64,000 bases of DNA from Minisyncoccota bacterium (GCA_017881075.1 JADGRH010000003.1:682-64681); one strand, 5' to 3'; shown: positions 2,825-39,382, counted from the stretch's first letter. Notes: a model not told the origin generated them from the sequence alone. A program made the numbers and translations.

Positions 2825-4763
2825 GGCTATTTTTGATCAAAAACCAAAAAAAACTCTTAGACCTTCACGTAAAAAAGGTCCGCTAAGTCGATTGCCCGGA
2901 GGGCGCAACCCTTTGTTTGGCAATGTGTTGATGACGGTTATTATCTTTATCATTTTGATCGCCTCATACGCTTTCATTACCGATAATAATTCAAATACTC
3001 AAACTATAAGTATCTCCCAACTGGCCCAAGACATCATTGGAGGAAAGGTAACGGAAGTGGCTGTAAGTGGAGACGATCTCTCTGTTACTTATGCGGATAA
3101 AAGCGTTAAGAGTTCAAAGAAAGAAGTAGCAAGTTCTTTATCACAGACTCTGGTGAATTATGGAGTGACTAAAGAAGATCTGGCCAAGGTCAACATTGCA
3201 GAGAAAAATTCCACAGGCTTTACTTATTGGCTTATCAACTTAGCTCCTTTTATTTTCCCAATTCTTTTCATTATTTTTTTCCTCTGGTTTCTGTCGCGAC
3301 AAGTGAAAGGGGCTGGCATGCAGGCCTTTACTTTCGGTCAATCAAAAGCGCGCCTGACTTCACCGACTGATAAAAAACAACGGGTTACCTTCAAAGATGT
3401 AGCTGGTGCCAAAGAAGCCAAAGAAGAACTTTCTGAAATCGTGGATTTTCTAAAAAATCCGAAAAAGTTTTTAGATATTGGTGCCAGAATTCCGAAAGGA
3501 ATTCTATTAATGGGTGCACCCGGCACGGGCAAAACCCTCCTGGCCCGTGCCGTCGCCGGCGAAGCCGGCGTGGCCTTCTTTTCTATTTCTGGATCGGAAT
3601 TTGTGGAAATGTTTGTTGGTGTCGGGGCTTCACGAGTGCGCGATCTTTTCAGTTTAGCCAAACAAGCCGCTCCGGCCATTATCTTTATGGATGAAATTGA
3701 TGCTGTAGGAAGAGTGCGGGGCAGTGGCATGGGTGGCGGAAATGATGAGAGGGAACAGACTCTAAATCAAATTCTAGTTGAGATGGATGGCTTTGAACCG
3801 AATGAAAAAGTAATCATGATGGCGGCCACCAATCGCCCTGATGTTCTGGATCCGGCCCTACTTCGTCCTGGCCGTTTTGATCGCCGAGTGACAATTGATA
3901 TGCCAGACAGAGAGGATAGGGAAGCGATTTTAAAAGTGCATTCAAAAGAGAAACCGTTCGGAGAAGATGTAAATTTGCGAGTGATTGCCGAGAGAACCCC
4001 AGGATTTTCCGGAGCGGATCTTTACTCGCTAATGAATGAAGGAGCCATCCTCGCCGCTCGCGAAAATCGTACAAAAATTACCCAATATGATCTTATCCGT
4101 TCAATTGAAAAAGTAATGCTTGGGCCAGAGAGACGCAGTCACATTCTTTCTAAAAAAGAAAAAGAAATTACTGCCTACCATGAAGCCGGTCACGCTTTGG
4201 TGGCCTCTGTGCTTCCTTACGCCGATCCGGTTCACAAAATTTCTATCATCTCCCGCGGCCGGGCTGCGGGCTACACCCTGAAGCTTCCGATAGAAGAGCG
4301 TAGGCTTCAATCAAAGAATGAATTTTTGGATGATATCGCCGTTTCTTTGGGAGGATATGTAGTGGAGAAAAAGATTTTCGGCGATCTGACTACCGGCTCA
4401 TCAAATGACCTGCAAGTCTCAACAGCTCTGGCGCGCGACATGGTTACTAAATATGGAATGTCGGACAAGATCGGACCAATTGCCCTAGAAGGTACGGGTG
4501 GCCGAACTTTGTTTGGAAGGGGAGTGGAAGAGAGAGAATATTCTGAAGATGTTGGAAAACTAATTGACTCCGAAGTCTCCAAGATTATGATGGATGCTTT
4601 CAAAAAAACTGAAACTATCATTACCGAAAAACGATCGATTCTTGACGCCATCGCCAAGGAGCTCATCGAAGCCGAAACCCTAGAACGCGAAGCTTTTGAA
4701 AAAATCTTAATTGCCAACGGCATCATTCCAAAGAAAAAGAAAGATATTGAGCATCAGGAATAA
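2823..4763 (+). CDS. ftsH: ATP-dependent zinc metalloprotease FtsH
   Basis: The 646-aa protein has an N-terminal TM region, an AAA+ Walker A GAPGTGKT, an SRH segment and the zinc motif HEAGHAL. Confidence 0.95.
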
Positions 4764-6318: not shown

Positions 6319-6393
6319 GGTGCGAGTGCTAGGATTCGAACCTAGGACCGGGCGTGTATAAGACGCCTGCTCTACCAACTGAGCTACACTCGC
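6319..6393 (-). tRNA. tRNA-Ile with anticodon UAU (reads AUA)
   Basis: A cloverleaf forms on the minus strand as GCGAGTG-TA-GCTCAGTTGGTAGAGC-A-GGCGT-CTTATAC-ACGCC-CGGTC-CTAGG-TTCGAAT-CCTAG-CACTCGC-A. The anticodon loop CUUAUAC gives anticodon UAU. Confidence 0.8.
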
Positions 6394-15377: not shown

Positions 15378-15466
15378 GGAGAGTTGGCTGAGTGGTCGAA
15401 AGCGCCTCACTGCTAACGAGGTAGGGGTCTTAAAGCCCCTCGTGAGTTCGAATCTCACACTCTCCG
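15378..15466 (+). tRNA. tRNA-Ser (anticodon GCU)
   Basis: GGAGAGT-TG-GCTGAGTGGTCGAAAGC... has the anticodon loop CUGCUAA and the long variable arm GGUAGGGGUCUUAAAGCCCCUC typical of class II tRNA-Ser. The T-arm is GTGAG-TTCGAAT-CTCAC. Confidence 0.9.
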
Positions 15467-16921
15467 CATTGTCTGAAAATCAGAATCTTTTGGTACTTTT
15501 GAGAGTATTGAATACGGACTTTTAAATTGATGTTGAGCCATACTTTGGTTTTTGAAAGATAGGTTCCAAACTATGATTTCTATAATTTCTCGTTTTTCTT
15601 CGTCATTTGCTTTCAAGAAGTCTTTTCTGGCTCTGCTTGCTCGTAAAAAGATTTCTTTAGTCGGTTCCAAGGTGGAAATTTGTTTGCTGTGTTTTTCTTG
15701 TATCTCCTGAATCTGCTTACTCACCAACACCCTCTCATTCTGAACCTCGAGCATTTTTCTGTCGTAAATCTCTTTGGAAATTTGCCGGTCTAGGAATGTA
15801 TCAACTAGGCGGGATTCTTTAGCTGTGAGAGCCTCTAGGCTCATTTTTAGGGTGGATAATATGGATTTAACATAATCCTCATCTAGCCCCAATTTCTCCT
15901 TAGCGGATTGGTACAAGATTTCAATGAGATTTTCGTCAATATCAAGTTTCTCAAAGAGAGAGGCGACCATTGGGTAGAGGGTATTCTCTCGCATGTAGGT
16001 TTTGTGTTCAGTACAAACTCCTTTGCTATTGGTGCAGTAGTAATAATGATGGCCTTTTTTCAGAGCGGCGGTCAGAGAACAGCCGCAACTTTCACAGACC
16101 AGAAAACCCCGAAGCGGAAAGAAATGAGTTTGAGATCGTGGACGATTTTTGTTGTGTAGGATGTTTTGAACTTTATCAAATAATTCTTTTGAGATAAGGG
16201 GCATATGGTTGCCGATATATAGTTTTCCATCTCTTTGCATTAGGCCGGAGTAAAAAGGATTATCTATGAAGCGATGAATATTGCCAGAGTAGAATTTTTT
16301 ACCAGATTCTGCACGAAGCCCCTCTGTGTAAAGAATGTTGGAAATTTCTTTGAAACTATGGCTTCCGGTAGAATATAGTTCAAATGCTCTGATCACATAC
16401 TTTGAATTTACCGGATGAATAGCAATAGTCCTGTTTGCCTTATCATTTAAATATCCGAATGGTGCACGATTCGGCCAATCTCCTTTCTCCAGTTTCGCCC
16501 GATTACCTCGTTTAATATTACTGCTCAAATCCCGTATATACTGACTAGCCATTCCTTGCTCAATACTCATTAGGAGCACATTGTCAGAGGGCAAAAAAGT
16601 TTTCTCAAATGTTTGAATGCACTTTATTTTCTCATTTTGAAGCAACCATTGAATCTGTCCCCCATCAACGGGGTTCCGACTAAGCCTGTCAATTTTCCAA
16701 CAGAGAATTCCATCAGCTTTGCCGGAAGAAATCATTTTAATCATCTCATTAAAAACTGGTCTTCCCGGCTCTTTTGCCGATTTGCTTTCCCTAAAAACTT
16801 TGACGATATTGAGATTTGCCTTTAGAGCCAAAGCCAGTAATTCTTTCTCTTGGGAATCTAAGGAGAGCATTTGCCTGTCCTCTGATTCTGTTGATTTCCG
16901 GCAATAAAGGATAAATTTCAT
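15455..16921 (-). CDS. large serine recombinase (integrase)
   Basis: The 488-aa protein has an N-terminal resolvase-type catalytic domain (YCRKSTESEDRQMLSLDSQ...ADGILCWKIDRLSRN), a recombinase domain and a Cys-rich zinc-ribbon (CESCGCS...YYYC), followed by a coiled coil. Confidence 0.85.
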   Translation of the reverse strand: MKFILYCRKSTESEDRQMLSLDSQEKELLALALKANLNIVKVFRESKSAKEPGRPVFNEMIKMISSGKADGILCWKIDRLSRNPVDGGQIQWLLQNEKIKCIQTFEKTFLPSDNVLLMSIEQGMASQYIRDLSSNIKRGNRAKLEKGDWPNRAPFGYLNDKANRTIAIHPVNSKYVIRAFELYSTGSHSFKEISNILYTEGLRAESGKKFYSGNIHRFIDNPFYSGLMQRDGKLYIGNHMPLISKELFDKVQNILHNKNRPRSQTHFFPLRGFLVCESCGCSLTAALKKGHHYYYCTNSKGVCTEHKTYMRENTLYPMVASLFEKLDIDENLIEILYQSAKEKLGLDEDYVKSILSTLKMSLEALTAKESRLVDTFLDRQISKEIYDRKMLEVQNERVLVSKQIQEIQEKHSKQISTLEPTKEIFLRASRARKDFLKANDEEKREIIEIIVWNLSFKNQSMAQHQFKSPYSILSKVPKDSDFQTMRRV

Positions 16922-16968
16922 GGTTTTTGAATAGTATACTTTTAGTTAATAGAGTTCAAATATGACTA

Positions 16969-17877
16969 CTAAGATAAACCAAGGGAATCCGAATCGGTAA
17001 TGTAGGTGTGGATGTTTTTGTCATAGAGAATCTTGCCGATAACATCAGCCTTGACGATATTGAGACAGGCATTTTTCATCACATACGGGTTTTTAAACTT
17101 CTTCTTTTTCCAGTTCTTCGTTTTGCTTAAAGTCCACTTCCGAAAGACTCTCTGCTGTTTCCGAAAAAGGTTCATCGGTTTTGTATAGCCGTAATAAATC
17201 TCTTTTCTGATTTCTAGTAGCTTTCGTGATCGTCCCCAAAACCGGCCGACCTTTCTATACTCCTCCGGCACTATCTTCTGTTGCCATTTTTTCATATAGC
17301 TTGTGATATACCACCCCATACGGCTTCTGTCTCTTACTGCCTCAACTTTTGTGCCAGCCTTTAAATGTTTTTCATCTTTCGAACCAACGATTTCATACCA
17401 TGTCTTTGCTACCCACTGATGGGGAATATGTTTATCCACCAGAACATGAAAGTGTGGGGCCCCTCTCTCTTGAAATTCAAGTGTCCATAAATATTGATAG
17501 CCCTTTCTTTGAAGATAGATCAGAAAGAGATGTAGATGACTCTTTACCAACGTGCCATTCATTGGATATGACATTGGATAGGTCAGTGTTATGAATACTC
17601 CCAACTTATCACAGACATTCCTTGCTACCATTTCAAATCTCCTTTGCGAACTAGAGCTATACTCAATGATCTCTCCCCTAGGACTACGTTCAAAGTTTCT
17701 ATCGCCCGATTGCCCAGCACTCTGATTTGAAATGCGAATATCCTTTGGCAATTTCGTCATGGTCACGGATTCGTATTGCATTTTGTCTTTCTTTTCACTC
17801 ATCTCTAATTTTTTGATATCTCCATCTATCTTTACCGGATGGCCATAATCGTCAATCCAAAAGTATGTCCTACTCAT
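16969..17877 (-). CDS. rolling-circle replication initiator (HUH endonuclease, phiX174 gpA-like two-tyrosine type)
   Basis: The 302-aa protein carries motif I FITLTY, motif II (HUH) PHFHVLV and motif III MGWYITSYMKK. Two Tyr residues are spaced by three residues, as in Microviridae A proteins. Confidence 0.65.
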   Translation of the reverse strand: MSRTYFWIDDYGHPVKIDGDIKKLEMSEKKDKMQYESVTMTKLPKDIRISNQSAGQSGDRNFERSPRGEIIEYSSSSQRRFEMVARNVCDKLGVFITLTYPMSYPMNGTLVKSHLHLFLIYLQRKGYQYLWTLEFQERGAPHFHVLVDKHIPHQWVAKTWYEIVGSKDEKHLKAGTKVEAVRDRSRMGWYITSYMKKWQQKIVPEEYRKVGRFWGRSRKLLEIRKEIYYGYTKPMNLFRKQQRVFRKWTLSKTKNWKKKKFKNPYVMKNACLNIVKADVIGKILYDKNIHTYITDSDSLGLS

Positions 17878-18094
17878 CTCCCGTATCCTCTGAGGCTGGA
17901 GGCGTTCCGCCCCGAGACACTAAAGTGTCTTCGGGGCCGGTCCGCCTCCTATCCCCAATCTTGGCAAATATGATGAAAAGACTGGCAAATGAATTCAGAT
18001 ATTCCTCGGCTGTCTCATCGGGAATATCCAAATCATATTTTTCTTTGAAGTATGACTGGATTCTCTCCACCAGTAATTGGCTGAATTTTTTCAT
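17870..18094 (-). CDS. hypothetical small protein
   Basis: The 74-aa ORF overlaps the rep start and has no motifs. A hairpin at 18107-18128 lies on the other side of the gene, upstream of its start on the coding strand. Confidence 0.3.
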   Translation of the reverse strand: MKKFSQLLVERIQSYFKEKYDLDIPDETAEEYLNSFASLFIIFAKIGDRRRTGPEDTLVSRGGTPPASEDTGDE

Positions 18095-18173
18095 AAAAAA
18101 TCTCGCACATTGTTTGTGCGAGGCCTTTATATCTTTTCTATGAAGTCAGCAATATGGAAAGAAACTGGGTATA

Positions 18174-19091
18174 TTATGTCTCTTTATCAGTAGGGCTAAA
18201 GATAAGACGATAGCCGAATTTTTTGATGTTTAGAAAAATGTCCGGGTTGCTTGTTTTGGTGGAGGGTAAAATATTAAATCTTTCTTTAAGGTTGCGAATG
18301 ATTAAAGACAAATTATCCCGATATGTTTTTGAGGCAGTTTCCACACCGGGGTTATATGACTTTAAGAGGGTCAAATAATCTGCCTGATAGTCTGGCGAAG
18401 TGTATAGGGTTGAAAAGACCTTAAATTCTTGCGTGCCAAGGGAGAGGGTGCCTTTCAGATCATGGAATACAAAATCACCGGTGCGATTATTAAAGGAAAA
18501 AGGCATTTTTTGTTTCGGCAATTCGGGTAATACTTCTTCCCCGTCAATCCCTAGCTTTTCCAATTCAGCCAAGAAATCAAGATGAAACTTTTTCAGCTCG
18601 TCCGTGTAATACTCCCTCATACCGCCCTTAAACCAGTTGTTATACACTCTCAATTTTTCTTTACTCCATAATCCTGTTTCTTCTGTTCTCTTTAGACCTT
18701 TCACCATAAGGAGGGCAACCGGGTCTAATTTATCTTCCAGGCCAGGAGAGGGGTGGATATATTCCTCCATCGGGCTATATATCCTCACAAACAAGTCAAT
18801 GTAATGTCCGGCATACAAAGAAAGATTTTCAACACGATCGGTCAATGCCGACTGATAATCAAGTTCATACTCGGTTGATTTACGGATACGCCATATCTCA
18901 GAATGCCCCTCATGATATTCCTTTTCACTTTTATCCATGATGGCCGAAAAGACAGGAGTTTTAACAATATGGTCAATGTATGCGTGGATATTTTTATAGA
19001 ACGACGAATCAGAATCGCTTTGGAGGGCGGTTTCGTAGCGGGTTTTAAGGGTGTTTATTATGTTAGACATGATGGGCATGAGTATACACAA
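18174..19091 (-). CDS. hypothetical protein (element cargo)
   Basis: The 305-aa ORF has no recognisable motifs. A hairpin lies downstream at 18107-18128. Confidence 0.4.
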   Translation of the reverse strand: MCILMPIMSNIINTLKTRYETALQSDSDSSFYKNIHAYIDHIVKTPVFSAIMDKSEKEYHEGHSEIWRIRKSTEYELDYQSALTDRVENLSLYAGHYIDLFVRIYSPMEEYIHPSPGLEDKLDPVALLMVKGLKRTEETGLWSKEKLRVYNNWFKGGMREYYTDELKKFHLDFLAELEKLGIDGEEVLPELPKQKMPFSFNNRTGDFVFHDLKGTLSLGTQEFKVFSTLYTSPDYQADYLTLLKSYNPGVETASKTYRDNLSLIIRNLKERFNILPSTKTSNPDIFLNIKKFGYRLIFSPTDKET

Positions 19092-19123
19092 ATTGAGAGG
19101 CTGAGTGTATCAAAACGCGCCCA

Positions 19124-19153
19124 TTGACAGATGAGCCTTAACTATGATATAAT
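19124..19153 (+). promoter_or_regulatory. consensus sigma70 promoter
   Basis: TTGACA at 19124-19129 is followed by an 18-nt spacer and TATAAT at 19148-19153. Both hexamers are perfect consensus. Confidence 0.55.
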
Positions 19154-19159
19154 GCGATG

Positions 19160-19340
19160 AGCTAAGTTCTTCGTCAGAAAGCCTTACTTCGTGATCTCGC
19201 CATAGCTTAGAGCGGCTCCAATCGGGCCTTTCCAAGCTATGGCGATAATGTAGCCCCCTAGCACCCACTGTCGCATTTGCGACCCCTCAACTCACGGGTA
19301 GTGAGAAAACTCATCGGCCATCGGCCGAAGAAAGGAAGTT
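19160..19340 (+). ncRNA. structured 5' RNA segment (leader or independent ncRNA) of unknown class
   Basis: A 12-bp perfect stem TCGCCATAGCTT...AAGCTATGGCGA encloses a 25-nt loop. Further hairpins are GTCGCA-TT-TGCGAC, CTCAC-GGGTA-GTGAG and TCGGCC-A-TCGGCCGA. The segment lies directly downstream of the consensus promoter. Confidence 0.35.
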
Positions 19341-19838
19341 ATGCAAGCACAACTGAAACCAGTGGAAAGTAGTGAACGACTAGAGGCTGCGTTCCAAATG
19401 CCACAAAGCCTCACATTCGATACGGAAGTGGCGACTGAGGAAGGTTTATTCGTCTTCCGTGTCTCAGCAAGCCCGATTCACGTCGAGGGCGACTGTCTGC
19501 GGGTAGATGAATTTGCCCTCAGTAAGTCTCGGAAGGTAGAGGTTATGCGCCGAAGAATCGCTAGCTGGATTCCATTTCGCACAGAAGAATACCCCGTTGA
19601 AGTCTGCGAGTGCATCTGGCAAGTCAACGTGCGATCGTGTGGGACGTTCGTTTTGTCGAGTGAGAAGCCGGTAACGGACCGCACTCACTCATTCGGCATC
19701 CGATCGAAGTTCGTTGGAGCTCTGGCGAACCGGAACATTTTGGTTTCCGACACCCTGCTCGACCGCATGATCGGCCCTCTCGAGAGCAAAGCGATGGAGA
19801 TATTGCGGATAGTGAACCGCTTCCCGTCGTTCTCCTGA
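19341..19838 (+). CDS. hypothetical protein encoded in a GC-rich foreign segment (the coding status is uncertain)
   Basis: The 165-codon ORF follows the SD-like AAAGGAAG 6 nt before ATG. Local GC content is about 54% against about 40% in the flanks. Four antisense ORFs of 60 aa or more overlap it, so the open frames may simply reflect GC-richness. Confidence 0.35.
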   Translation: MQAQLKPVESSERLEAAFQMPQSLTFDTEVATEEGLFVFRVSASPIHVEGDCLRVDEFALSKSRKVEVMRRRIASWIPFRTEEYPVEVCECIWQVNVRSCGTFVLSSEKPVTDRTHSFGIRSKFVGALANRNILVSDTLLDRMIGPLESKAMEILRIVNRFPSFS

Positions 19839-19891
19839 TCGGCAACCCCCATCAGCCGGAAACGAGTTAAACAACCGTCCTCAAGGACAGG

Positions 19892-19929
19892 AAACCGCCT
19901 GTCATGTTGAGGGCGGTTTTTCTTTTTTT
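19892..19929 (+). terminator. rho-independent terminator
   Basis: The stem AAACCGCC/GGCGGTTT around the loop TGTCATGTTGAG is followed by TTTTCTTTTTTTG. Confidence 0.7.
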
Positions 19930-19974
19930 GCTTTCAAACCTTAATGGGATTACACTATTCTTAATAAGGTTTCA

Positions 19975-20436
19975 ATGGATAAAAAATTAATCAGAGAAAA
20001 ACTTAGTTGGTACAGAGGAAATATAATTTCAGACGCAACCGTGATAGAGGTGGCTTTAGGTTGGAAACTAAGAACCTATTTTTTCCCTAAAACGAATAGA
20101 CAGGCAGGAATTTTCTATTGGCATATTATAAACACTTCTCATTTCAATTTTGATAGAAAAATCTCTCTCTATGAGCAAATCCCATACTTTCAAAAACTGA
20201 AGCAGTATATGAAAGTAAAAAAATCCTTAAGGTTTGTTCAGCAAATAAGAAATGCGATTGCTCATTGGCAGTTAGACGAATGGGAGAGTAATGAAAATGA
20301 AATTGTTATTTACCACCCAAACCTGTTTAAAAAAATAAGACTGAATGATAAATCCATGACCGAATTCAAAGAGCATGAAAAATATCTTCTCAAAACTTTC
20401 GGTTGGGAACAGACTCTTAAGGAAAAATACGCTTAA
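19975..20436 (+). CDS. small HEPN-domain protein (Rx4H motif), putative RNase toxin / abortive-infection-like
   Basis: The 153-aa AT-rich ORF has the motif QIRNAIAHWQL at residues 92-97 (R-x4-H), the HEPN catalytic signature. It is the last gene inside the element, before attR. Confidence 0.45.
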   Translation: MDKKLIREKLSWYRGNIISDATVIEVALGWKLRTYFFPKTNRQAGIFYWHIINTSHFNFDRKISLYEQIPYFQKLKQYMKVKKSLRFVQQIRNAIAHWQLDEWESNENEIVIYHPNLFKKIRLNDKSMTEFKEHEKYLLKTFGWEQTLKEKYA

Positions 20437-20597
20437 ATGCAATCTCCTATATTCAAAAAGGTTCCAACTTCATCCCACACTCTCCGCCAAGAAAACTTAG
20501 TATTGGCATGACCCGAGTGCCTGGGATTGTGGGGCGATCTGAATAGAAAAACGGAGAGTCAATTTGGACTCTCCGTTTTGAGGCAGAGGATGAGAAA

Positions 20598-20903
20598 TCA
20601 TTTTTTCTCTTTTGGCTTCTCTTTGGGCGGCTTCGGAAGCGTGCTCTCGGAGACAAAAGTATCTTGTGGTTGCTCACCATCTCGCTTGTATTTATCCAAA
20701 GGACTTGGCGGTCCGCCTTTTTTGAACGGGTTAGGCGGTGTTCCGATGATGCCGTGCTTTTTCATGAGTTTCCTTTCGGTTGGCGGTTTGCTATTCATTC
20801 TCAATGCTACCAGAAATTTCCGTGATTGCCAGAAAGTGACCCCGACCCACATACCTCGATTCAATCTCCAAAATGATGCTAAAATAGCCTTACGGGATCT
20901 CAC
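20598..20903 (-). CDS. hypothetical basic Pro/Lys-rich protein
   Basis: The 101-aa ORF is followed on its own strand by the hairpin AAAACGGAGAGTC-AATTT-GGACTCTCCGTTTT at 20548-20580. Confidence 0.3.
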   Translation of the reverse strand: MRSRKAILASFWRLNRGMWVGVTFWQSRKFLVALRMNSKPPTERKLMKKHGIIGTPPNPFKKGGPPSPLDKYKRDGEQPQDTFVSESTLPKPPKEKPKEKK

Positions 20904-39066: not shown

Positions 39067-39307
39067 TAGTTGCGGGGCCCGGATTTGCGCCGGGGCCTGG
39101 AGGTTATGAGCCTCCCGAGCTACTGCTACTCTACCCCGCTATGTGGGTAATCTAAACTTCTACACCTTAATTCCATGGAGGTTATGAGTCTATTAGTTCT
39201 TTGCGAGCTACTGCTACTCTACTCTGCCATGAGCTTAATCGTAGTTATAGCAATATAACTCATCTTTATTTTATTTGCAATTTCCTATATATTTAACCAA
39301 CCTCAAT

Positions 39308-39382
39308 GTCGGGGTAGCTCAGTCGGTAGAGCACAGGACTCATAAGCCTGGGGTCGTGGGTTCGATTCCCACCCCCGACACC
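39308..39382 (+). tRNA. tRNA with CAU anticodon (Met or lysidine-Ile)
   Basis: GTCGGGG-TA-GCTCAGTCGGTAGAGC-A-CAGGA-CTCATAA-GCCTG-GGGTC-GTGGG-TTCGATT-CCCAC-CCCCGAC-A-CC. The GGG:CCC anticodon stem of initiator tRNAs is absent. Confidence 0.8.

Follow-up and report, generated by a model that had tools for sequence, protein, structure and literature searches.

The HEPN superfamily, defined by Anantharaman et al. 2013 (PMC3710099), is recognised by an Rx4-6H motif in which a polar residue (N, D or H) follows the arginine and which is placed at the end of helix-3, within a fold that has a loop to helix-4 after the motif and an insert separating helix-2 from helix-3. Many HEPN families cluster with restriction-modification genes, to which they have been proposed to act as a back-up (PMC3710099). 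The family of PDB 3jrt (Table 1 of the same work) is a HEPN family of integron cassettes described from Gammaproteobacteria. Integrons are also present in Archaea, with recruitment of cassettes across domains (PMC9668308). The open reading frame (ORF) considered here, ORF153, lies in a stretch of 64,000 nucleotides from a Minisyncoccota bacterium (GCA_017881075.1, JADGRH010000003.1:682-64681), the whole of which is called the window. Its product probably represents a new, mobile family of this superfamily, encoded by a gene that stands on its own. Labels of the form L### denote the loci of ORF153-family homologues used in the flank and neighbour comparisons. The features of the gene are as follows.

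19975-20436, + strand: ORF153, 153 aa, ATG start (ORF call); predicted small single-domain HEPN-like protein of an unnamed family
20248-20265, + strand: Rx4H codons R92-N93-A94-I95-A96-H97, predicted catalytic motif (conservation and predicted helix position)
19928-19969, + strand: candidate weak own promoter of ORF153, TTGCTT, 17-nt spacer, TACACT (by eye)
19966-19969, + strand: Shine-Dalgarno AAGG of ORF153 (by eye)
20460-20468, + strand: 3'-flank motif GGTTCCAAC, common to L070, L077 and L094/L016 (flank comparison)

An earlier note on this DNA had described a 153-aa reading frame containing QIRNAIAHW, and it is present at these positions. Among 5.8 billion proteins, ORF153 has 287 homologue clusters at 64-84% identity, with full-length identity of 69-82% in the best 120 of the 287, and 170 loci encoding the family were found in a metagenome scan. 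Sequence conservation around ORF153 ends at both borders of the coding sequence (CDS). Across 18 family loci the mean pairwise identity is 77%, synonymous change is near saturation, and the ratio of nonsynonymous to synonymous change (dN/dS) is ~0.12, a sign of purifying selection. By the 287 clusters and this ratio, ORF153 is a real gene of a very conserved family without a name. An exhaustive profile search yielded no more than 112 clusters at 50% identity, 27 of them below 1e-10, which makes the wider family a small one, and a third homologue search, with a divergent-alignment query, returned the same tight family and nothing further. ORF153 is AT-rich, with a GC content of 32%, and the family genes have 28-36% GC in hosts of 32-57% GC. 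Along 80 distinct CDSs of the family the synonymous-site entropy is flat, at 0.45-0.74 of expectation, and none of the suppressed synonymous variation expected of an embedded antisense RNA or internal element was seen in them. The consensus promoter scan did not report the TTGCTT-17-TACACT element upstream of ORF153. About 30 nt of the leader appears to resemble the leader of cassette-type relatives (ACTATTGAGTATAGGT vs ACTATTCTTAATAAGGT).

Within QIRNAIAHW, R92 is encoded at 20248-20250 and H97 at 20263-20265. All 26 close homologues keep R92, N93, A96, H97 and W98, and in 54 relatives at 17-65% identity the sole invariant positions are K62, R92 and H97, while G15, E25, N93 and A96 are conserved in at least 90%. 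Since R92 and H97 are invariant down to 17% identity, the segment is not a chance Rx4H, and the conservation of the two residues among homologues, on which the earlier note had made its reading depend, is borne out. In an AlphaFold2 (AF2) model of ORF153 (pLDDT 91.3, pTM 0.85) helices are predicted at residues 3-36, 41-52, 78-97 and 125-141, with a helical insert at 59-73; RNAIAH closes helix 78-97 at its C-terminal end, and a beta-hairpin and then helix 125-141 come next. Both the polar N93 right after R92 and, as a prediction rather than a solved structure, the position of the motif and of the insert correspond to what is described for HEPN proteins. The sole Pfam match of ORF153 is a sub-threshold one to PF18736, HEPN pEK499_p136 (E = 0.0055, residues 84-110). 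When the 54 relatives were scanned against 24,736 Pfam models, marginal matches fell on HEPN_RiboL-PSP (6 members), Abi_2 (4), pEK499_p136 (4), HEPN_Apea (2) and MAE_28990 (2), and further on Csm6_HEPN, Cthe2314, Swt1 and DUF4145; it is very unlikely that such a pile-up on one clan, HEPN, would arise by chance. Searches of ORF153 against PHROGs gave nothing above threshold, a PDB sequence search with the protein found no HEPN chain, and hhalign of the family profile against two single proteins, Ymh (L003) and a 210-aa RNxxTH protein (L017), gave no informative alignment. The claim that the protein bears the signature of HEPN RNases holds for the conserved R-N-x-x-A-H; in the profile and fold searches no match reaches threshold, and the assignment to a Pfam HEPN family stops at weak matches of the relatives, nearly all of them to HEPN families. 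Based on this comparison, the ORF153 family is probably a new family of the HEPN superfamily, outside all named HEPN families. The assignment, made from motif, profile hints and predicted helix topology, is good but incomplete, as the fold searches did not confirm it.

The family gene is not accompanied by a regular partner. A Pfam scan of the neighbours of ORF153 found no minimal nucleotidyltransferase (MNT) or other nucleotidyltransferase adjoining it, and no MNT recurs beside the family gene in the 77 loci that have at least 400 nt of upstream flank, which confirms the lack of an MNT partner remarked upon in the earlier note. The lone nucleotidyltransferase neighbour, at L011, is the cyclase of a CBASS system that has a Cap15 effector of its own. 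Clustering of neighbours at 19 loci gave no conserved partner, and the commonest adjacent ORF on the same strand, a DNA methyltransferase, is found in 5 of the 77 loci. By this comparison the ORF153-family gene is solo, with no conserved partner. Its hosts comprise Saccharibacteria, Paceibacterota/Parcubacteria, Dehalococcoidia, Omnitrophota, Delta- and Gammaproteobacteria, Acidobacteriota, Nitrospirota/Thermodesulfovibrionia and a Thermoplasmatota metagenome-assembled genome (MAG), and one copy comes from a 727-kb contig whose genes include archaeal-type ones (replication factor C subunits, DUF1512, A24 peptidase). The gene is present in 15 of 185,579 species genomes, and the family is absent from IMG/VR, INPHARED and PLSDB, which is neutral as to a role in defence. 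Flanks are kept only within sub-clades and differ from one sub-clade to the next. As judged from sequence, these comparisons establish the family gene as a self-contained unit of horizontal transfer between bacteria and archaea, found in three settings: single-ORF integron cassettes, restriction-modification operons in which it comes last, and serine-recombinase islands at tRNA genes, where it is cargo.

About a quarter of the family loci are integron gene cassettes, in bacterial and archaeal contigs alike, and the HEPN gene is the only ORF in these ~680-bp cassettes. A leader of ~60-80 nt is common to 23 of 85 family loci and a 3' flank to 12 of 84. At L008 (602-4300, a Dehalococcoidia MAG) three consecutive cassettes adjoin a tyrosine recombinase, and the GTTRRRY core of each is the exact reverse complement of its own 3' R'' (GTTATGT/ACATAAC; GTTATAT/ATATAAC, the HEPN cassette of 677 bp; GTTAGGC/GCCTAAC). 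The same geometry, with the core at -57 to -60 and R'' at +55 to +69, recurs with a co-varying core (GTTGTGC/GCACAAC) at L029, L032, L033 and L038, and with one mismatch at L009, L037 and L049; at L060 the core position is the same and an R''-like ATACAAC is present. Exact core/R'' matches at this fixed geometry number 8, where 1.55 would be expected. The L''/L' stem of attC, aligned over 11 sites, is 92.5% paired, with compensatory changes in 7 of 13 stem pairs, values reached by none of 500 shuffles. With a covariance model derived from the aligned sites, 14 loci yielded 24 attC sites, grouped into arrays of two or three; in the archaeal contig L009 they lie on both sides of the HEPN gene (3066-3829, a two-attC cluster in the Thermoplasmatota MAG). 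Further arrays are on several metagenome contigs (L029, L033, L060, L037, L032, L068), and two arrays are flanked by tyrosine recombinases. At L033 a tyrosine-recombinase fragment precedes the HEPN gene, and a GmrSD-type restriction enzyme is the product of the cassette after it. Core, attC, arrays and tyrosine recombinase are thus all found in the family (L008, L029, L032, L033, L038 and others). The fixed-geometry test and the covariance model took the place of a stricter first attC scanner, which found nothing owing to extrahelical bases, and of a looser genome-wide scan for self-complementary cassettes, which was too noisy (~28 matches vs 21.75 expected). The occurrence of cassette copies in archaea and bacteria fits the reported archaeal integrons (PMC9668308), and the family is a clean, traceable example of one cassette common to bacterial and archaeal integron arrays. 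The gene is present as well in restriction-modification operons and, in Patescibacteria/CPR-like genomes, in islands that target tRNA genes.

The window copy is not of this form: at E <= 10 the covariance model detects no attC anywhere in the 64 kb, and the sole core/R'' pair around ORF153 is the low-complexity GTTTTTC/GAAAAAC. A vestigial attC around ORF153 was also considered, and neither the core/R'' nor the covariance search found one.

Restriction-modification genes form the second setting. A ThaI-type endonuclease and an N6/N4 methyltransferase are directly upstream of the gene, ~4-30 nt away, at L014/L085, L019, L051, L055, L057 and L073, the order at L014 (1233-3301) being endonuclease, methyltransferase and HEPN gene. 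The L014 module comes shortly after a tRNA-Ser(GCT), in a genome that, like the window, has RecG and ComF in the vicinity. Remnants of a methyltransferase 3' end precede the HEPN gene at L010, L012 and L013, a D12 methyltransferase precedes it at L053/L054, and so does a MutH-like endonuclease with a methyltransferase at L070/L077. The third setting is marked by a serine recombinase within 4.5 kb of the HEPN gene (the window, L003, L011, L017, L051, L059, L076 and L093), often together with other defence genes such as CBASS cyclase with Cap15, TIR, Hypoth_Ymh, SLFN_AlbA_2, and a type II restriction endonuclease with Vsr. Of 89 loci, 12 have a tRNA gene within 2.5 kb and 6 have one within 300 nt, nearly all on the same strand, which agrees with the use of tRNA genes as integration sites by islands. 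The L023/L102 homologue, with 84% identity, lies 223 nt downstream of a tRNA-Ser whose 3' half is duplicated, and the gene after it is that of a glycosyl hydrolase. This duplicated 3' half is a scar of integration or excision. The arrangement at L023 3691-3887 is tRNA-Ser, 48 nt, a ~60-nt copy of its own 3' half, 113 nt and then this closest homologue.

Some islands hold further genes next to the family member. At L059 (1539-2611) and L076 (1701-2772) a 69-aa gene of XRE-type helix-turn-helix (HTH) ends 3 nt before the HEPN gene, a predicted membrane protein of 134-144 aa overlaps the HEPN stop codon, and a divergent serine recombinase adjoins; HTH, HEPN and membrane protein may form a regulated three-gene module. 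Unannotated neighbours at L017 (4145-4777, 5460-6251) and L011 (8938-9642) carry RNxxxH-type motifs (LDIRNKITH, LVRNIKSVH, LRHLRNQVVH). They have no match in Pfam and may be additional HEPN-like proteins in the same islands.

In the window, the element that carries ORF153 is inserted at a tRNA-Ser gene and has the following parts.

15378-15467, + strand: tRNA-Ser(GCT), the integration target, with attL at 15452-15467
15455-16921, - strand: large serine recombinase of the carrier (Resolvase, Recombinase, Zn_ribbon_recom), its 3' end overlapping the tRNA
16969-17877, - strand: rolling-circle initiator (HUH Rep) of the carrier (PF23343, 3.6e-11; phrog_3419, 1.2e-12)
20472-20487, + strand: attR, the displaced 3' end of tRNA-Ser and right boundary of the carrier element

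The last 16 nt of the tRNA-Ser gene (ATCTCACACTCTCCGC, 15452-15467) are repeated as ATCCCACACTCTCCGC at 20472-20487. The repeat scores 27, compared with a shuffle 95th percentile of 24 and a shuffle maximum of 28, and it is exactly the tRNA 3' end, the place where att sites are expected. With moderate confidence, the pair can be said to bound an element of ~5 kb (15452-20487), between whose ends lie the serine recombinase, Rep, two unknown ORFs, a GC-rich unit and ORF153. The element is in effect an integrated small rolling-circle replicon; its Rep has no relatives in IMG/VR. ORF153 is the attR-proximal cargo gene of the element and fits its earlier description as the terminal one, being the last gene before attR, which starts 36 nt past its stop codon. 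Just outside attR, 110 nt past the same stop codon, a perfect 13-bp hairpin (AAAACGGAGAGTC-AATTT-GGACTCTCCGTTTT, 20546-20583) is probably a bidirectional terminator, and no gene is called in the 550 nt that separate ORF153 from the following one. A candidate remnant of the tRNA-Ser 5' half at 19099-19121, which would have pointed to a split tRNA or an older island boundary, was rejected, its score of 22 being within the shuffle range (mean 20, sd 2.1).

With moderate confidence, ORF153 is read as a stand-alone, conditionally active HEPN RNase of defence type that is carried as mobile single-gene cargo and is unrelated to the GC-rich unit upstream of it. By analogy with other HEPN proteins that have an intact R-N-x-x-A-H, it would be a metal-independent RNase. 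Its active site would be formed only on self-association or on an infection-related trigger, and at low constitutive expression the protein would be harmless, so that no linked antitoxin would be needed. It would then act as a stand-alone effector of the defence or abortive-infection type and, in part of the family, may back up the adjoining restriction-modification system. The retention of the gene alone in very different hosts suggests that ORF153 is not an unconditional toxin in need of a linked antitoxin, and as the sole ORF of ~680-bp cassettes the family gene is evidently tolerated alone.

Several observations weigh against this reading. The best Pfam score for ORF153 is 16.9 bits, against a cut-off of 26.6; nothing in NCBIfam and, at E <= 1, none of the curated defence-protein models of PADLOC-DB matches it; the 54-member profile finds no HEPN protein among PDB sequences; and a Foldseek search of the model against PDB and BFVD returns nothing at E < 0.1. 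The conserved acidic residue, E25, is in the first long helix, where many HEPN families have theirs in helix-2, and at many family loci the neighbours are housekeeping genes. Defence and toxin genes are usually fast-evolving, and an identity of 77% across domains is atypical for them; the protein could have another, more constrained role. Such high conservation argues for an RNA target of the family that is constrained and perhaps universal. A tentative and rather doubtful extension is that ORF153 is a minimal self-sufficient HEPN RNase, with no antitoxin, sensor or partner, that senses or cleaves a universal RNA in bacteria and archaea. Were this so, the universal target would account for the ~77% identity despite cross-domain cassette hopping, and the family would be a portable single-domain module of cross-domain immunity or RNA targeting.

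The unit upstream of ORF153 was found as the earlier note had described it, with its promoter, ORF165 and terminator; the stretch has 50-56% GC, against 32% in ORF153.

19124-19929, + strand: neighbouring transcription unit of promoter, GC-rich structured transcript with ORF165, and terminator
19124-19153, + strand: sigma-70 promoter, 12/12 consensus with extended TG (promoter scan)
19341-19838, + strand: ORF165, an orphan, inside the GC-rich stretch
19873-19929, + strand: long hairpin and T-run, a terminator with a 22-bp hairpin (DNA fold z = -3.2)

In the pairing that had been proposed, a type III-like or reversed toxin-antitoxin (TA) system, the upstream RNA or ORF165 would neutralise a HEPN toxin and the pair would stabilise the integrated replicon. 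The units are same-strand neighbours, the promoter is perfect, the 771-nt upstream transcript has a very stable predicted fold (z = -5.1), and HEPN toxins normally require neutralisers. However, the upstream unit is unique to the window locus: it is missing from 98 other ORF153-family loci, its DNA (19100-19974) has no match in 18 other family loci, in PLSDB plasmids or in INPHARED phages, and tblastn of ORF165, ORF305, ORF74 and Rep against ~96 family loci gave none at E <= 1e-6. ORF165 has no homologue except itself in 5.8 billion proteins, and Rfam gave chance-level matches only, and no family, on 18900-20700. The closest relative of ORF153 (84% identity, L023/L102) has neither the GC-rich unit nor Rep nor recombinase, and the gene is alone in the integron cassettes. 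No tandem repeats were seen, in agreement with the earlier note, so that the conserved upstream tandem-repeat RNA of type III TA is not found at this locus. The strong terminator insulates ORF153 from the GC-rich unit, and what precedes the gene after it is only the weak promoter-like TTGCTT-17-TACACT with AAGG. Because ORF165 lacks homologues and the unit is absent from the other loci, the upstream unit does not appear to be a partner of ORF153; the TA pairing is largely refuted by the absent co-occurrence and is very improbable. The unit, which could be an orphan structured RNA, is a separate finding that needs an explanation of its own, and not as an antitoxin. The idea of an addiction module could still be saved by a hidden antitoxin, a cis-antisense RNA, a leader micro-ORF or a host factor, with post-segregational killing explaining persistence. 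The gene does remain beside att remnants of lost islands (L023/L102, L016), the HTH gene of L059/L076 ends 3 nt upstream, and TA cassettes are known to stabilise integron arrays, according to works cited in PMC9668308. Against this, the 80 CDSs have no suppressed synonymous variation, flank conservation is limited to sub-clades, the HTH neighbour is present in just 2 of the 77 loci, and addiction agrees poorly with a gene that has no antitoxin and is often the sole ORF of its cassette; a hidden antitoxin is improbable.

Two further explanations give up either the defence role or the HEPN assignment. The protein could be a non-defence RNA-processing or regulatory factor, or an anti-defence factor with which mobile elements counter hosts or competitors, that acts on a universal RNA such as tRNA or rRNA. 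Its very strong conservation over the full length in bacteria and archaea suggests a universal partner, and the recurrence beside tRNA genes and the housekeeping neighbours would agree with this. Adjacency to tRNA genes is, however, expected of island cargo, as the att repeats illustrate; the functional neighbours seen most often are restriction-modification and other defence genes; and the gene is rare and compositionally foreign, hence not a core function, which makes this role unlikely, though less so than a hidden antitoxin. Alternatively, ORF153 could have a different helical fold, with R-x4-H kept for structure or binding, in line with the absence of a structural neighbour in the Foldseek search of PDB and BFVD, with HEPN profile matches that are all sub-threshold and with an empty hhalign result for the neighbouring Ymh protein. 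Yet K62, R92 and H97 alone are invariant, an N after the R is typical of HEPN, the marginal matches fall on about ten HEPN families out of all the Pfam models scanned, and the position of the motif in its helix fits HEPN. A non-HEPN protein is about as improbable as a hidden antitoxin, and the preferred reading remains that of a stand-alone HEPN RNase of defence type. If the activity proposed for ORF153 holds, it would rank with the smallest HEPN effectors that work alone, having neither sensor nor antitoxin, which would raise the question of how a bare HEPN domain stays silent and what activates it.

Elsewhere in the window, a tmRNA gene is found at 1874-2283 on the minus strand (Rfam RF00023, 95.8 bits), ARAGORN calls two tRNA-Met(CAT) at 39069-39140 and 39308-39382, and a tRNA-Ile with the anticodon TAT (UAU) is at 6319-6393. 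A tRNA-Ile with a UAU anticodon is uncommon in bacteria.

Compared with known systems, the window locus resembles type III TA systems (ToxIN-like) superficially, in that promoter, structured RNA, terminator and nuclease gene follow one another in this order. It differs from them in having no tandem RNA repeats, in that ORF153 is not of the ToxN/AbiQ type, and in an RNA unit that is not co-conserved. With HepT-MNT (type VII TA) ORF153 shares its small size and Rx4H, whereas it has no MNT, either beside it or in the 77 loci, and no match of DUF86/HEPN (PF05168) type. Among HEPN defence nucleases that are encoded by single genes or linked to restriction-modification, the PrrC/RloC anticodon nucleases carry an ABC-ATPase, and ApeA carries an N-terminal domain. 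These proteins are several-fold larger than ORF153 and have regulatory domains, while the ORF153 family has none; like them (in part after PMC3710099), it has no dedicated antitoxin, is found in or next to restriction-modification operons and is presumed to be switched on by infection.

Within the HEPN superfamily, the profiles nearest to ORF153 are pEK499_p136 (PF18736), RiboL-PSP-HEPN (PF18735) and Abi_2 (PF07751). In common with the superfamily, ORF153 has R-N-x-x-A-H at the end of a long helix, a polar residue after the R and an upstream acidic residue, and its family has a small all-alpha core with an insert and clusters with restriction-modification genes and mobile elements. Unlike the named HEPN families, none of which it matches above threshold, ORF153 is one bare domain of ~150 aa (~150-160 aa in the family), and the family is conserved far above the norm of fast-evolving HEPN families. 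As in the PDB 3jrt family, a HEPN-type protein is carried as an integron gene cassette, although ORF153 has no sequence similarity to any PDB chain and no Foldseek match, and its family extends to uncultivated phyla and archaea. The family is a new one of a known superfamily, and its mobile lifestyle is noteworthy but has precedent, as HEPN proteins on integrons and HEPN defence proteins encoded by a single gene are both known.
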